This document shows, in pieces, positions 6,010-30,004 of a DNA stretch of 64,000 nt. The position numbers and the translations under genes are program-made. The stretch is from a phage. The notes beneath the pieces were generated by a model. That model was not told the DNA's origin and did no database searches. It was given only the letters and a program-made list of their open reading frames with translations. The stretch is taken from sequence record PQ338057.1; one strand, given 5' to 3'. Positions within the stretch are counted from its first letter, which is position 1. Each line of letters starts with the position of its first letter.

Positions 6010-6032
6010 ATGGCGACAAAATGGCGGCAGCG
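6010..6032. repeat. attL core: left copy of direct repeat atggcgacaaaAtggcggcagcg
   Basis: Matches 29982-30004 at 22 of 23 positions. Confidence 0.75.
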
Positions 6033-6251
6033 TCAAAGAGAGAGCGCCACCTGTCCTGATTTCATTGGATGCGGCTGAACCGGATTTGACTCTTTTGGCG
6101 TTGCAATCGAACGAACAAAAGTTTCATGAGTAACAAAAGTATGGCTGCAGTTAATGTTCTGGCACTGGTTGTAACGCTCTTTGGTCAATGAAGATACCTG
6201 AAAACTGCTGCGAGTATGGGCGGCACTTCCACACAGTGGGCAAATCATCAT
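6033..6251 (-). CDS. ogr: Ogr/Delta-family zinc-finger late transcription activator (P2 Ogr / 186 B homologue)
   Basis: CPLCGSAAH...CQNINCSHTF C4 zinc-finger pattern; located next to att as in P2; start placed at internal Met of track ORF 6033..6284. Confidence 0.75.
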   Translation of the reverse strand: MMICPLCGSAAHTRSSFQVSSLTKERYNQCQNINCSHTFVTHETFVRSIATPKESNPVQPHPMKSGQVALSL

Positions 6252-6341
6252 TTTTCGAGTTCTCCCCATTTTTGCTAAATTCACAATAATGATACCGCAT
6301 TATTCCATTTTGAGAACTTAAAAGTTCTCCATTGCGAAGAA

Positions 6342-6710
6342 TCATTCCATTTCGAAATCATCAATCTTCACTTCAAGCTCCAGACTGGTCGTAAAACCGT
6401 TATCCGGGCTGACAGTATGCGTCAGGGTGGTAATAGTCCATTCCGCATCATCTATCGGCTGTTTAAAGCCACTGACTTTCACTGGCATTTCCGTGTAGAG
6501 ATCTGCCCGCCCTTCCGCCAGTTGTAGCGAGAATGACGCAACGCCGCGTTGCAGGCGTTCCCACTGCATTTTCGCCGCTCGTTCGGCGTTGCTCCGGTTG
6601 GCATAAGTGCGATTAAGTACCAGCACGTTTTCATCCGTACCCACCAGGTAATCGCCCTGCTTCGCTTCCGGCTCTTTCTTCTGCTTCTTAGTTCTGCGCT
6701 TACGCTTCAC
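6342..6710 (-). pseudogene. C-terminal fragment of tail/late-control protein gpD-like
   Basis: C-terminal ...WTITTLTHTVSPDNGFTTSLELEVK resembles gpD-family C-termini (recall); abuts the truncated invertase; upstream tail genes are missing. Confidence 0.45.
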
Positions 6711-6982
6711 CGTGGTGCTTTCTTTCTTCGCAGGTTCGCGGGTAACTCTTCTATCAGCGTAACAAGATGCCGCATACTGCGCCCCAACCTGTCCAGCTTC
6801 CAGACAACCAGCGTGTCTCCTGCCGATAGTGTCCTGAGCAGTTTTTTCAGCCCCGGTCTGTCGGACTTAGTGCCGCTGATTTTATCCTCAAAAATCCGCT
6901 CACATCCCGCGCAGTTCAGCGCACTACGTTGCAAATCGGTGTTCTGGTCATTTGTTGACACGCGTACATAGCCAATAAGCAT
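6707..6982 (-). pseudogene. serine DNA invertase (Pin/Gin/Hin/Cin family), N-terminal catalytic domain only
   Basis: MLIGYVRVSTNDQNTDLQR...GDTLVVWKLDRLGRSM is a resolvase/invertase N-terminus; ORF ends after ~90 aa with no HTH DNA-binding domain. Confidence 0.7.
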
Positions 6983-7009
6983 GATCATCTCCTTGAATAA
7001 AAATCGGGG

Positions 7010-7552
7010 ATGATGCCAGTTAGTCGTAATCGCTGCATTTTCTTAAACGTTGGTTTGGGAGAAGACTCTGCATTACCTGTTGGGGTGCCTGTTCCGTGGC
7101 CTTCAGCCACTCCGCCTACAGGCTGGCTGAAATGCAATGGTGCAGCTTTTTCTGCTGAAGAATACCCGGAACTGGCAAAGGCTTATCCGACAAATAAATT
7201 GCCTGATTTACGTGGTGAGTTTATTCGTGGCTGGGATGATGGGCGTGGTATTGATGCTGGACGTGCCTTGCTAAGTCTTCAGAATGGAGGAGTGGAATCA
7301 CACACCCACCAGGGACAGCTCTTCAGAGTCAGTGATTATCGTACAAAAGAAATACCAGCATCAGAAGTTATGGGAAGAGGATATATTGCAAGCCTGACGC
7401 CGGGTGCTGATAGCCCACTTGATTTTGATGATTATTCTGTATCCTCTAATCCAAATGGATATTTTGTCGGGAATCAGAGAACAACAGCATATGGGGTAAA
7501 TGAAACCCGCCCACGGAATATTGCATTTAACTATATCGTGAGGGCTGCATAA
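7010..7552 (+). CDS. silent alternative tail-fibre C-terminal cassette (H' variable part), currently not joined to the constant part of H
   Basis: PVPWPSATPPTGWLKCNGAAF tail-fibre C-terminal motif; begins at the crossover site, where it encodes ...VGLGE matching ...LGLGD in H. Confidence 0.6.
   Translation: MMPVSRNRCIFLNVGLGEDSALPVGVPVPWPSATPPTGWLKCNGAAFSAEEYPELAKAYPTNKLPDLRGEFIRGWDDGRGIDAGRALLSLQNGGVESHTHQGQLFRVSDYRTKEIPASEVMGRGYIASLTPGADSPLDFDDYSVSSNPNGYFVGNQRTTAYGVNETRPRNIAFNYIVRAA
7036..7061. other. invertase crossover site (gix/hix/pix-like imperfect palindrome), right end of invertible segment
   Basis: ttttcttaaacg-tt-ggtttgggagaa; the conserved half, read on the bottom strand, is ttctcccaaacc. 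Confidence 0.6.
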
Positions 7553-8154
7553 TGGATAACGCTGTATTAAATAGCGAGCTTATTGCCACGAAGGCGGGAA
7601 ATATTCCTGTCTATAACTATGATGGTGAAACACGGGAATATATTTCCACTTCAAATGAATATCTTTCCGTTGGTGTCGGCATTCCGGCATGTTCCTGTTT
7701 AGATGCCCCTGGCACACATAAGGCTGATTATGCAATCTGCCGTTCTACAGATTTTAACTCATGGGAATATGTGCCAGATCATCGCGGTGAAATCGTCTAT
7801 AACACCGAAACGGGAGATGCCAAAGAAATCACAGCTCCGGGTGATTACCCTGAAAATACAACCACTATCGCACCGTTAACGCCATACGATAAATGGGATG
7901 GTGAGAAATGGGTGACAGATACTGAGGCACAACACGGTGCCGCAGTAGAAGTGGCAGAAGCACAACGCCAGTCACTGATTGATGCAGCAATGGCTTCCAT
8001 TAGTCTGATTCAGCTGAAATTGCAGGCCGGGCGGAAGCTGATGCAGGCAGAAACCACCCGACTTAACATTGTGCTGGATTACATTGACGCGGTGACGGCA
8101 ACAGATACCAGCACCGCGCCGGATGTCATCTGGCCTGAACTGCCGGAGGCGTAG
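7552..8154 (+). CDS. tail fibre assembly protein (Tfa), alternative copy inside the invertible segment
   Basis: 200-aa ORF; its C-terminus (DYIDAVTATDTSTAPDVIWPELP) mirrors that of the convergent Tfa at 8126-8563. Confidence 0.7.
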   Translation: MDNAVLNSELIATKAGNIPVYNYDGETREYISTSNEYLSVGVGIPACSCLDAPGTHKADYAICRSTDFNSWEYVPDHRGEIVYNTETGDAKEITAPGDYPENTTTIAPLTPYDKWDGEKWVTDTEAQHGAAVEVAEAQRQSLIDAAMASISLIQLKLQAGRKLMQAETTRLNIVLDYIDAVTATDTSTAPDVIWPELPEA

Positions 8155-28111: not shown

Positions 28112-28303
28112 ATGCTTGGTAAGGTATTTTTTGTGGTTTTATCATGCTCTTTGTTATTAAACCCACTAACTACCTATGCTAAAAATTATCCTTGTTCTGG
28201 GAAAAAGGGAGGTGTCTCTCACTGTACCTCCGATGGAAAGTTCGTTTGCAATGATGGAACTATTAGTAAATCAAAAAAAATCTGTACTAAAAACTCGCGA
28301 TAA
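28112..28303 (+). CDS. small secreted cysteine-rich peptide (63 aa precursor)
   Basis: GGGAGG RBS; signal-peptide-like N-terminus; four Cys in the mature ~40 aa; AT-rich. Confidence 0.55.
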
Positions 28304-28489
28304 ATTTTGCTTTTATATCTGCGCCTAATATAACAATGAGCCGCAGGCTAACCGCAAAAGTCACATACTCACATAGCAAAAAATAGCTAACTTCATTATG
28401 GCTTCAGTGAGATGTATGGTCGCAGGATTTCATACATTGACACTGGTTATACATACAGTAAAAATGCTCTCTACTGGAGGGCATTTTTT

Positions 28490-29506
28490 ATGGCAGTACG
28501 AAAACTCACCACAGGAAAATGGCTTTGCGAATGTTACCCCGCCGGACGTAGTGGACGTCGTGTGCGTAAACAATTCGCCACCAAAGGCGAAGCTCTGGCT
28601 TTTGAGCGTCACACGATGGAAGAAACCGAAGCAAAGCCCTGGCTGGGCGAATCAGTGGATCGTCGGACATTGAAAGACGTGATTGAGCTATGGTTCAAAC
28701 TACATGGTAAATCTCTGACAGCTGGGCAGCATGTCTATGACAAACTGCTGTTGATGGTTGACGCTCTGGGCAATCCCCTTGCAACTGATCTAACCTCTAA
28801 AATGTTTGCCCACTATCGAGATAAACGCCTGACAGGTGAGATCTACTTCAGCGAGAAATGGAAGAAAGGAGCAAGCCCGGTCACCATTAACCTGGAGCAA
28901 AGCTATCTAAGTAGTGTTTTTAGCGAACTATCCCGCCTGGGCGAATGGTCGTATCCGAACCCACTGGAGAACATGCGAAAATTCACCATCGCAGAAAAAG
29001 AGATGGCATGGCTTACCCATGAGCAGATTGTTGAACTGCTGGCTGATTGCAAACGTCAGGACCCAATTCTGGCACTGGTAGTCAAGATATGCCTAAGCAC
29101 AGGCGCACGCTGGCGAGAAGCAATAAATCTTACCCGCTCGCAAGTGACCAAATACCGAATTACCTTTGTAAGAACGAAGGGGAAGAAAAACAGAAGCATC
29201 CCTATCAGTAAAGAGCTTTACGAAGAGATCATGGCGCTTGATGGGTTCAATTTCTTTACAGACTGCTATTTTCAATTTTTATCCGTGATGGAAAAAACGT
29301 CTATCGTGCTCCCTCGCGGTCAACTGACACACGTTCTGCGCCATACGTTTGCGGCGCACTTCATGATGTCGGGTGGAAATATCCTTGCTTTGCAAAAAAT
29401 CCTCGGACATCACGATATAAAAATGACTATGCGCTATGCCCATTTAGCACCCGATCATCTTGAGACGGCTCTGAGATTCAACCCCCTCGCAACGCTAGAA
29501 GTGTGA
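28490..29506 (+). CDS. int: tyrosine integrase (P2-type), 338 aa from MAVRKLTTGKW
   Basis: C-terminal R..HxxR..Y pattern (LRHTFAAH...MRYAHLAPDHL); GGAGGG RBS; adjacent to attR. Confidence 0.9.
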   Translation: MAVRKLTTGKWLCECYPAGRSGRRVRKQFATKGEALAFERHTMEETEAKPWLGESVDRRTLKDVIELWFKLHGKSLTAGQHVYDKLLLMVDALGNPLATDLTSKMFAHYRDKRLTGEIYFSEKWKKGASPVTINLEQSYLSSVFSELSRLGEWSYPNPLENMRKFTIAEKEMAWLTHEQIVELLADCKRQDPILALVVKICLSTGARWREAINLTRSQVTKYRITFVRTKGKKNRSIPISKELYEEIMALDGFNFFTDCYFQFLSVMEKTSIVLPRGQLTHVLRHTFAAHFMMSGGNILALQKILGHHDIKMTMRYAHLAPDHLETALRFNPLATLEV

Positions 29507-29614
29507 TCTACTGGTGCAAAAATAACATCATCCCCCACTAGCTGAGTTAATTGCGTCAGAGTAAACTTTTATCAGTATATAAGTTCACTTTTATTCAATA
29601 TATTAAGAGATTAC

Positions 29615-29947
29615 ATGGCTATCATTACCGTAAAAAAACATACTGTCAAAAAAGCATTATCGATGGGATTTGAAAAAGTACTTGACGATCGTGGTTATGA
29701 TTCTGGGGCGTACTACGTTAAAGATGGCAAAAAGTGGATTTTTGATATTGTTGCGCTTAAGCAAAAACAAGGAGCAACCTCAGATGATGAGTTAAAAATC
29801 CTTGGGTATGATGTTGATACATATAATCTTGTAAAAAATGAATCTAATGAACTGGCTGAACTTTATCAAGATATTGCAGTTGAAGATGGTGAGCCAATGT
29901 ATCTAGAGGGTGGCGTGTACTTATATCCTGATGGTTCTATCCGTTAG
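29615..29947 (+). CDS. hypothetical protein (110 aa) between int and attR
   Basis: AT-rich ORF; no recognisable family. Confidence 0.45.
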   Translation: MAIITVKKHTVKKALSMGFEKVLDDRGYDSGAYYVKDGKKWIFDIVALKQKQGATSDDELKILGYDVDTYNLVKNESNELAELYQDIAVEDGEPMYLEGGVYLYPDGSIR

Positions 29948-29981
29948 CATGCAAATTGGCAGCACAACCGGGTTGTTCCAA

Positions 29982-30004
29982 ATGGCGACAAAGTGGCGGC
30001 AGCG
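29982..30004. repeat. attR core: right copy of direct repeat atggcgacaaaGtggcggcagcg
   Basis: Matches 6010-6032 at 22 of 23 positions. Confidence 0.75.

Follow-up and report, generated by a model that had tools for sequence, protein, structure and literature searches.

The 24.2-kb element between ybjL and rcdA in the 64-kb stretch of DNA analyzed here (the window) is very probably Rybb*B, the defective P2-like prophage (186/Fels-2 type) of Escherichia coli B with a 186-type integrase, which would have entered the small-RNA gene rybB by a crossover within ATGGGTTTTTTGTT and whose two 23-bp direct repeats would be arm blocks. As a discovery this carries little weight: the prophage of E. coli B has long been catalogued, and rybB is a published hotspot of P2-like phages. 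The element illustrates that direct repeats lying close to the two ends of a prophage need not be the att core, and that the real core can be shorter, partly mismatched and revealed only by comparison with an empty site. It is also an example of integration into the terminator of an sRNA gene that leaves the host gene unchanged, much as tRNA-targeting phages restore the 3' end of the tRNA.

The duplicated core at the 3' end of rybB

The host flanks of the element are ybjL on the left (4112-5797, + strand; PGAP annotation of an identical record and the open reading frame list) and rcdA on the right (30127-30663, - strand; annotation), two convergent genes between which an earlier note on this DNA had correctly placed the insertion. 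The note had also given these genes as adjacent in K-12 and had considered the phage DNA a strain-specific island, and both statements were borne out. In K-12 TG1 the two genes are neighbors with a spacer of 174 bp, and the site is strain variable, being uninterrupted in 4294 of 5423 complete E. coli genomes and occupied in about 21% of them.

The core duplicated at the junctions is ATGGGTTTTTTGTT, 14 bp that are identical at 5942-5955 and 30097-30110; this 14-mer occurs exactly twice in the window, with 0 occurrences expected by chance. At the left junction, homology with K-12 is exact to 5955 and imperfect to 5968, while at the right junction, homology with K-12 and thousands of other genomes resumes at 30097. 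The same break points are seen in thousands of genomes. By comparison with K-12, the attL core (5942-5968, + strand) consists of the 14 exact base pairs (5942-5955) followed by a 13-bp phage-type extension, GCCTGAAATTTAT. On the other side (30082-30123, + strand), a phage-supplied hairpin with a terminator-like match (30082-30103) overlaps the exact attR core, which is followed by a host-type extension, ATCTAAAACTTAT, up to 30123. Over 27 bp the core has 4 mismatches in the window (14 identical positions, then 9 of 13), whereas it is identical at 27 of 27 positions in other E. coli lineages; a full 27-bp phage-type core is present at the empty site of AVS0453 and at attR of CFT073. The overlap region is thereby bounded, with only 14 identical core base pairs in this host, and the exact positions of cleavage are inferred.

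The lysogen carries rybB at full length and intact (5877-5955, + strand; Rfam RF00110, 105.3 bits, model positions 1-79 of 79), in a region that is the same as that of K-12 through 5955. The terminator stem of rybB (5910-5919/5937-5946) is a 10-bp perfect inverted repeat followed by a T-run; it was missed by a simple terminator scan because its loop is 17 nt, and was recovered as an inverted repeat. The 14-nt core is the last 14 nt of rybB, comprising the 3' half of the terminator stem and the U-run. The empty-site comparison agrees with an insertion that lies at the rybB 3' end, in the ybjL-rcdA spacer, and has a copy of the core at each junction. The earlier description of the target as intergenic was right in that no coding sequence is broken, but the target is the 3' end of an sRNA gene recognized by Rfam.

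A tRNA target had been denied in the same note, and ARAGORN found no tRNA or tmRNA gene in 3000-33000. Integration into tRNA genes by 186-type phages is a tendency and not a defining rule (PMC3448106), and it is not followed here, the target being the rybB sRNA gene. This target is the non-coding counterpart of tRNA-gene integration and not anonymous intergenic DNA. The finding is ordinary and known: P2-like integration at rybB was published in 2011, 2014 and 2023, and Felsduovirus hotspot #29 has been described as integration within rybB (Hochhauser et al. 2023). No paper linking P2-like phages with ybjL turned up in a literature search, the site being indexed under rybB instead.

The 23-bp repeats as probable arm-type sites of attP

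The direct repeat on which the earlier note was built, ATGGCGACAAA(A/G)TGGCGGCAGCG, is present as described on the + strand at 6010-6032 and 29982-30004, with 22 of 23 positions identical between the copies. These are the only two copies in the window, and 100 shuffles yielded 0 matches. The stop codon of ogr (6033-6035, - strand) adjoins the left copy, again as described. The int gene (28490-29506, + strand), placed near the right copy in the note, lies to the left of that copy, with an extra 110-aa open reading frame, ORF110 (29615-29947), between the two. The claim that did not stand is that the repeat bounds the inserted DNA, as phage DNA runs on past both copies, for another 54 bp on the left (as far as 5956) and for about 92-106 bp on the right (as far as 30096-30110). 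The 23-mers themselves belong to the phage and are not the attachment core. A nested or tandem insertion as the source of the phage DNA outside them was considered and rejected, the arm-core-arm unit being contiguous in two phage genomes.

On the - strand, the left 23-mer (the ogr-proximal arm) is made up of two adjoining 11-bp units of 186 type, TGCCGCCATTT and TGTCGCCATCG, and the right 23-mer (the int-proximal arm) likewise holds two adjoining 11-bp arm-type units on the - strand. The units of both 23-mers are in 11-bp phase and in the same orientation, and the two on each side fit the 186-type arm consensus, given as tgccGCCActt in the literature (PMC3448106) and as YAYCGCCAYTY from the GenBank record of phage 186, where the sites are annotated as "predicted." In that record, predicted Int arm-type sites form tandem 11-bp units on both sides of attP. 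Across the 64-kb window, YCGCCAY was found twice in 11-bp phase only in the two 23-mers.

Between the arms and the core lie sites resembling the IHF consensus, each matching it at 12 of 13 positions as a pattern match only. One, AATCATGATGTTA, is on the ogr side (5978-5990, + strand), and two are on the int side (30045-30057 and 30064-30076, - strand), where they sit within a direct repeat, AACTTATTGTTTT. The int-side arm stands 92 bp from the core and the ogr-side arm 54 bp, spacings that are kept in KP12 and ESSI2_ev040.

When attP was rebuilt from the right and left ends of the element, it was found to be contiguous, at 98% identity, in Klebsiella phage KP12. The KP12 record, labelled a "partial sequence," derives from phages prepared from sewage, but ESSI2_ev040 and the prophage junctions agree with it. 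The attP is contiguous also in ESSI2_ev040, a diverged phage in which the 23-mers are kept at 23/23 and 21/23, the core is kept, and the spacings are exactly 92 and 54 bp; the stretches between the 23-mers and the core have diverged in part, most of all next to ogr. In KP12, 4LV2017 and ESSI2_ev040 the int-proximal 23-mer falls within the 3' end of int, and its conservation in these relatives could partly reflect coding constraint. Such constraint does not explain the conservation of the ogr-proximal copy, because that copy is non-coding; its sequence and 54-bp spacing are kept in KP12 and ESSI2_ev040.

The 338-aa tyrosine integrase (Pfam Int_N and Phage_integrase) is 56% identical to 186 Int over the full length (334 aa) and 99% identical to KP12 Int over 336 aa. 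Its N-terminal arm-binding domain carries the W, E and Y of a 186-type integrase, at W11, E14 and Y16, with MAVRKLTTGKWLCECYP aligned with MTVRKNPAGGWICELYP of 186; these positions have been proposed to separate 186-type from P2-type arm recognition (PMC3448106). The kept sequence and spacing suggest that Int binds both the arm sites and the core, and the 23-mers are a pair of probable arm-type Int-binding sites of attP.

We consider it unlikely that the 23-mers are functional attP arm elements for another protein, such as an Apl/Cox-type excisionase or the CI repressor. The 186 record also has sites for Apl and IHF within the arms of attP, and sites for CI near the B gene, the homologue of ogr. 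However, the Apl sites of 186 are on one side of the core only, and its CI sites are upstream of B, whereas the left 23-mer lies downstream of ogr, past its stop codon; moreover, the motif fits the published Int arm consensus, and its orientation and 11-bp phasing are as at 186 attP. Less probable still is a functionless repeat, the relic of a duplication of the int 3' coding end in the phage lineage. The int-proximal copy does fall within the int ORF of relatives, but the non-coding ogr-proximal copy is kept at 21-23 of 23 positions and, in ESSI2_ev040, at 54 bp from the core across DNA that has largely diverged, and the layout mirrors the attP architecture of 186 and P2. There is virtually no chance that the repeat is the att core, a duplicated bacterial target marking the island ends, as the earlier note proposed. 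In its favor are two near-identical direct copies, one near each end, which have ogr and int immediately inward of them. Against it, the uninterrupted ybjL-rcdA locus of K-12, a reference of the kind that the note itself had named for a refutation, holds no copy even with 3 mismatches allowed, the AVS0453 empty-site stretch holds none, a different shared 14-mer lies 54 bp and 92 bp beyond the copies at the limit of host homology, and free phage genomes hold both copies, flanking the real core.

Proposed route of integration

With the 23-mers read as Int arm sites, a 186-type tyrosine integrase would insert the prophage into the rybB 3' end, recombining within the 14-bp identity. The phage attP copies this core inside the phage's own terminator-like hairpin, and since it carries the terminator-stem/U-run sequence of rybB, the gene stays intact after insertion. 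If the system works like those of lambda, P2 and 186, Int would contact the arm units through its N-terminal domain and the core through its central and C-terminal domains, and the intasome would be built with IHF bending the DNA in between. Integration would leave one arm block beside each prophage end, which is why the 23-mers look like flanking repeats.

Gene content and identity of the prophage

The element has the gene set and order of P2 (ogr-D ... H-I-J-W-V, S-R, lysis, O / P-Q, A, switch, int), as in Peduoviridae, in an incomplete form that lacks FI, FII, E, T, U, N, M, L, X and the holin gene. Relative to 4LV2017, stretches of about 7.4 kb and 3.1 kb have been deleted at two internal places, and there are three pseudogene fragments. 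To the right of an ogr/Delta-type late-gene activator (6033-6251, - strand; Pfam PF04606 and annotation), the first deletion joint (6342-6982, - strand) fuses a gpD fragment without its N terminus (6342-6743) to a serine-invertase fragment without its C terminus (6743-6982). PGAP flags pseudogenes here, homology with 4LV2017 ends at 6744, and 4LV2017 25217-32637, including FI, FII, E, T, U and the N terminus of D, has no counterpart in the window. Next come a tail-fiber segment, the baseplate genes H, I, J, W and V, and then S, R and lysB/lysC (7010-14857, - strand; annotation and blastn against 4LV2017), with a DUF6216 cargo gene on the + strand (12715-13521; annotation). At the second joint (14854-15746, - strand), a C-terminal fragment of the endolysin meets the scaffold gene O, itself truncated, without N, M, L, X or the holin gene, and 4LV2017 16583-19726 is not in the window. 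In all, the losses come to about 10 kb and affect head, lysis and tail genes; the element lacks a complete structural module for virions and, judged by its genes, is defective.

The terminase large subunit (P) and portal (Q) genes (15889-18680, + strand; ORF list and annotation) are followed by the type II-A retron Ec86 (18698-20746, - strand; NCBIfam and PADLOC), with a reverse transcriptase (18698-19660) and an NDT-type effector (19823-20746) that match NCBIfam NF038233 and NF038232 and PADLOC RT_II-A and NDT_II-A. The retron msr/msd RNA gave no real match with Rfam at gathering or E-value thresholds. An early region (21747-27401, - strand; annotation) encodes a DinI-like protein, replication gene A, a dam methylase, a TraR-like protein, fil and cII, with a 73-aa ORF in the apl/cox position (27180-27401, - strand; annotation), and a 186-type CI repressor lies beyond it (27527-28096, + strand; Pfam PF07022 and PF16452 and annotation). 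Neither the 73-aa ORF nor the DUF6216 protein had a match in those of the Pfam, NCBIfam and PADLOC scans that covered it.

Each annotated prophage protein has the same RefSeq accession as in REL606, in the same order. The element shares with Rybb*B of REL606 and BL21 its protein accessions, gene order, pseudogene joints and flanks; no difference was detected, the window reading the opposite strand relative to REL606. Rybb*B has been named, placed at the "rybB ncRNA" and described as the carrier of retron Ec86 (PMC3032704). The retron segment is 100% identical in BL21, REL606 and other B strains. An origin in classical E. coli C, the P2 indicator strain, was rejected on the basis of the REL606 accessions and the retron identity in B strains; the E. 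coli C genome paper makes no mention of a prophage.

Relation to other phages and prophages

The integration site is common to the group of PhiECO1, PhiECO2, PhiECO3 and PhiSEN1 (Nilsson et al. 2011) and to hotspot #29. In CFT073, PhiECO3 begins 17 bp past the stop codon of rcdA, the exact end of the 14-bp core, and has int beside rcdA and the same arm 23-mer. These prophages measure about 31-35 kb, in contrast to 24.2 kb with two deletions here, and CFT073 differs in having another, 89-aa ORF between int and the arm site and core identity of 27/27.

The Klebsiella phages 4LV2017 (Elveevirus) and KP12 share 95% nucleotide identity over 67-69% of the element and the same attP. An annotated 19-bp att, ATGGGTTTTTTGTTGCCTG, lies beside Klebsiella rybB in 4LV2017, which has a St85-family retron in the same slot, of a variant that differs from the one here. 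Both phages are complete (33.4-34.8 kb), are without the ORF110 and DUF6216 modules and have a different immunity region.

The likeness to 186 extends to the YCGCCAY arm motif, which flanks the core on either side as tandem 11-bp units, to the IHF-like sites that separate arms from core, to a lysogenic-operon terminator at attP and to a small ORF (Orf69) between int and attP. Phage 186 integrates at tRNA-Ile 3' ends, its common core measures 36 bp and its arm units number five to six, whereas the element has rybB as its target, a 14-27-bp core, two units per arm and a P2-type ogr at the att-distal end. With P2 it shares the ogr-attP-int plan, a core of 27 bp, arms with two direct repeats each and a target that is not a tRNA gene. 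The core of P2 is different, and P2 has a C/Cox-type switch in place of CI/Apl/CII. The arm consensus of P2 is tgTGGaCa, and its Int has Y/D/R at the N terminus in contrast to W/E/Y here (PMC3448106). Another RNA gene, cyaR, is given as the site of P2-type elements, among them the K-12 ogr-D' remnant (PMC3032704 Table 2).

Cargo between int and the arm site

ORF110 belongs to a cargo module (29497-29977, + strand) between the int 3' end and the arm site. The module is absent from 4LV2017 and KP12 and present in only 71 of the 5423 genomes, and ORF110 had no Pfam, NCBIfam or PADLOC match. It is possible, though less likely than not, that the stretch from the int stop codon to the arm is a recurrent cargo slot in rybB-/186-type phages, with insertions at one precise point that replace the last ~14 Int codons. 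If so, ORF110 would be an uncharacterized lysogen-expressed function, for example a defense or conversion gene. The stretch holds ORF110 in the element, the different 89-aa ORF in CFT073 and Orf69 in phage 186.

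A 14-bp core, not the 23-bp repeat, marks the prophage junctions

A search of the whole window with ATGGCGACAAARTGGCGGCAGCG returned two exact pattern matches, both on the + strand, at 6010-6032 and 29982-30004. The left and right 23-mers differed by one base, and no match to the pattern was found across 100 dinucleotide-preserving shuffles, confirming the pair of copies described in an earlier note. As that note had stated, the end of an ogr-type gene (6033-6251, - strand; Pfam Ogr_Delta) abutted the left copy. The gene for the integrase, int (28490-29506), did lie leftward of the right copy, with a 110-amino-acid open reading frame, ORF110 (29615-29947, + strand), between the two. 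The host genes ybjL (4112-5797, + strand) on the left flank and rcdA (30127-30663, - strand) on the right flank converged on the element, and in K-12 TG1 these genes were neighbors separated by 174 bp, in agreement with the gene order given in that note.

The 23-mer had been taken for the att core bounding the island. Comparison with an uninterrupted site, the check named in the earlier note, refuted this assignment: the K-12 ybjL-rcdA spacer contained no copy of the 23-mer with up to 3 mismatches allowed. Alignment of K-12 with both junctions demonstrated identity to position 5955, weaker similarity to 5968, and homology again from 30097 on. By megablast against 5,426 complete E. coli genomes, the alignments of thousands of strains broke at window position 5968 (query position 569) at the left junction and at 30097 (query position 798) at the right junction. 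The 14-bp sequence ATGGGTTTTTTGTT was common to attL (5942-5955), attR (30097-30110), and the empty site, and occurred only twice in the window, with 0 occurrences expected by chance. The inserted DNA spans ~24.15 kb (5956-30110).

This core continued as an imperfect 13-bp extension, identical at 9/13 positions between attL and attR, with the phage-type extension GCCTGAAATTTAT at attL and the host-type extension ATCTAAAACTTAT at attR. The presence, in this host, of the phage variant at attL and the host variant at attR implies that strand exchange took place inside the first 14 bp of the core or at their edge. A full 27/27 core, with the phage-type extension on the host side, was found in other lineages, for example in the AVS0453 empty site and in CFT073 attR. 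The record of Klebsiella phage 4LV2017 annotates a 19-bp att, ATGGGTTTTTTGTTGCCTG.

The element is inserted at the 3' end of the rybB small RNA gene

The earlier description of the target as an intergenic region away from any tRNA was correct in that no tRNA or tmRNA gene was detected in 3000-33000 by ARAGORN and no coding sequence was broken; however, the intergenic site is really the 3' end of a structured-RNA gene, rybB. Full-length RybB (5877-5955, + strand; Rfam RF00110, 105.3 bits, model positions 1-79 of 79) was the sole match in the entire window to exceed the Rfam gathering score. The 14-bp core forms the final 14 nt of this gene, made up of the end of the 3' arm of the terminator stem (10 bp, perfect; 5910-5919/5937-5946) and the U-run. 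Since rybB was the same as the K-12 copy through 5955, the gene was preserved after insertion. Insertion at the 3' end of a structured-RNA gene follows the same logic as tRNA/tmRNA targeting. At the opposite junction, the phage hairpin found in attP and attR formed, together with the core, a terminator-like structure (30082-30103) with a T-run after it. The attP of coliphage 186 has an analogous feature, annotated as "predicted terminator of lysogenic operon."

Two alleles of the 13 bp directly downstream of rybB were observed in E. coli, read at window positions 5956-5968 and 30111-30123, at 306-318 of L009, and at 2358-2370 of L006. The K-12/B type is ATCTAAAACTTAT, and the AVS0453/CFT073 type is GCCTGAAATTTAT, the same as the phage core extension. 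rybB was not annotated by PGAP in NZ_CP029371.1 or in the viewed regions of TG1, REL606, and CFT073.

The 23-mers are predicted arm-type integrase sites

The attP was predicted by connecting the two prophage ends, right to left, at the core. In Klebsiella phage KP12, the resulting 206-bp sequence was found uninterrupted from int to ogr, with 98% identity, and it was also contiguous in the more distant Escherichia phage ESSI2_ev040. Thus, both 23-mers are phage DNA flanking the core. In a three-way attP alignment without gaps, the int-side 23-mer of ESSI2_ev040 was identical to the left copy of the window (23/23), the far-side 23-mer scored 21/23, and the spacings from 23-mer to core were unchanged, at 92 bp and 54 bp. 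The hairpin and core formed a conserved island as well, while much of the remaining attP sequence had diverged, above all on the ogr side.

We read the 23-mers as the predicted arm-type blocks of attP, to which Int would bind. Each 23-mer consisted of two adjoining 11-bp units, which in the left copy read, on the - strand, TGCCGCCATTT and then TGTCGCCATCG. On either side of attP, the GenBank record of 186 annotates tandem 11-bp units, labeled [quoted passage not shown] and in the 64-kb window a YCGCCAY motif doubled in 11-bp phase was found only in the two 23-mers. Int contained the Pfam domains Int_N and Phage_integrase, shared 56% identity with 186 Int along its entire length, and carried W, E, and Y (GKWLCECYP) at the residues proposed to discriminate 186-type from P2-type arm recognition (Nilsson et al. 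2011). Two IHF-consensus-like sites (12/13) were present between the core and the int-side arm block, and a third (12/13) between the core and the ogr-side block; in the 186 record, IHF footprints likewise lie on both sides of the core. Integration would split attP at the core and leave one arm block just inside each prophage end. A function for the repeat is very likely, though not the one assigned to it in the earlier note.

In the rybB terminator loop, CCGCCATTT (5920-5928, + strand) exactly matches the reverse complement of a stretch of the arm-type motif (6019-6027) and so resembles, on the host side and 14 bp from the core, an arm-type unit in inverted orientation. With YCGCCAY occurring at ~1.2 per kb, this likeness may reflect chance or a host-side Int contact.

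Cargo genes

A ~480-bp module (29497-29977) carrying ORF110 sits exactly between the int 3' end and the arm site. As a result of this insertion, Int ends two codons past ...PLATL, the module having put 2 codons in place of the final 14 of KP12 Int. In KP12 and ESSI2_ev040, the annotated int frame extends through the 23-mer (+14 codons in KP12). The lost Int tail is probably dispensable, since 186 Int is 336 amino acids long. The module was found in only 71 of 5423 E. coli genomes; at the same insertion point CFT073 has an unrelated 89-amino-acid open reading frame and 186 has Orf69. ORF110 had no Pfam, NCBIfam, or PADLOC match.

Retron Ec86, of type II-A (18698-20746, - strand; flanks 18615-21748), comprised a 320-amino-acid reverse transcriptase (RT), which scored as a St85-family/type II-A retron RT, and an NDT-type effector. 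No msr/msd RNA was found by Rfam. PGAP calls a shorter RT of 295 amino acids; in the 320-amino-acid frame, the match to the PADLOC profile begins at residue 9. The retron slot, beside the portal gene, is variable, with a different St85-family retron in 4LV2017. Inserted between baseplate gene V and gene S, and oriented opposite to them, is a DUF6216 gene (12715-13521, + strand). This gene is absent from 4LV2017 and had no PADLOC or NCBIfam match; its position may be another cargo slot.

Two deletions prevent particle formation

The element was compared by blastn with its complete relative 4LV2017 (33.5 kb). Positions 25217-32637 of 4LV2017, encoding the H C terminus, the fiber-assembly gene, FI, FII, E, E', T, U, and the D N terminus, were absent from the window and replaced by a truncated serine invertase and an alternative tail-fiber segment (6745-9129). 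Also absent were positions 16583-19726, encoding the end of O as well as N, M, L, X, the holin gene, and the endolysin N terminus. The D, invertase, and endolysin fragments were marked incomplete by PGAP. These losses therefore leave the element unable to make particles. Int, a CI-type repressor, CII, and a 73-amino-acid open reading frame at the apl position were intact, and excision is conceivable.

Within window positions 6743-9129, the serine-invertase gene is cut to ~80 codons and fused to a gpD fragment. Beside it lie opposed pairs of tail-fiber and fiber-assembly genes (7010-8154, + strand; 8126-10187, - strand), and the arrangement looks like an invertible fiber segment whose invertase gene was cut off by the deletion.

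The element is the known rybB prophage of E. coli B

All tested segments matched, at 100% identity, a record bearing the name "Escherichia coli strain C" (NZ_CP029371.1, from cow's milk). The annotated prophage proteins of this record all had the same RefSeq accessions, in the same order, as those of REL606 (880.6-904.6 kb), and both records contained the same three pseudogene fragments. The retron segment was 100% identical in BL21, BL21(DE3), REL606, B, and derivatives; it was at least 80% covered in 46 genomes, with 100% identity in all 40 matches listed. Since the region carries E. coli B (REL606) accessions and a retron identical to that of BL21/REL606, the strain name "C" should not be taken to mean E. 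coli C, the classical host of P2.

For the P2-type prophages Rybb*W, Rybb*B, and Rybb*Cr, the E. coli W genome paper gives the insertion site as "rybB ncRNA," and it states that "Rybb*B carries retron Ec86" (PMC3032704). PhiECO1 (HS), PhiECO2 (ATCC 8739), PhiECO3 (CFT073, 908870-942351), and PhiSEN1 have been placed in one integration-site group (Nilsson et al. 2011). CFT073 rcdA ends at 908853, and the published prophage start coincides with the end of the 14-bp core. The element, its integration site, and its cargo are all already known from the literature. The site was uninterrupted in 4294 of 5423 genomes, and the ybjL-attL-ogr junction was present in another 1114, giving an occupancy of ~21%.

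In the host flank, the c-di-GMP phosphodiesterase gene pdeI (~42759-45107, - strand) is annotated in the identical record as a pseudogene with an internal stop.
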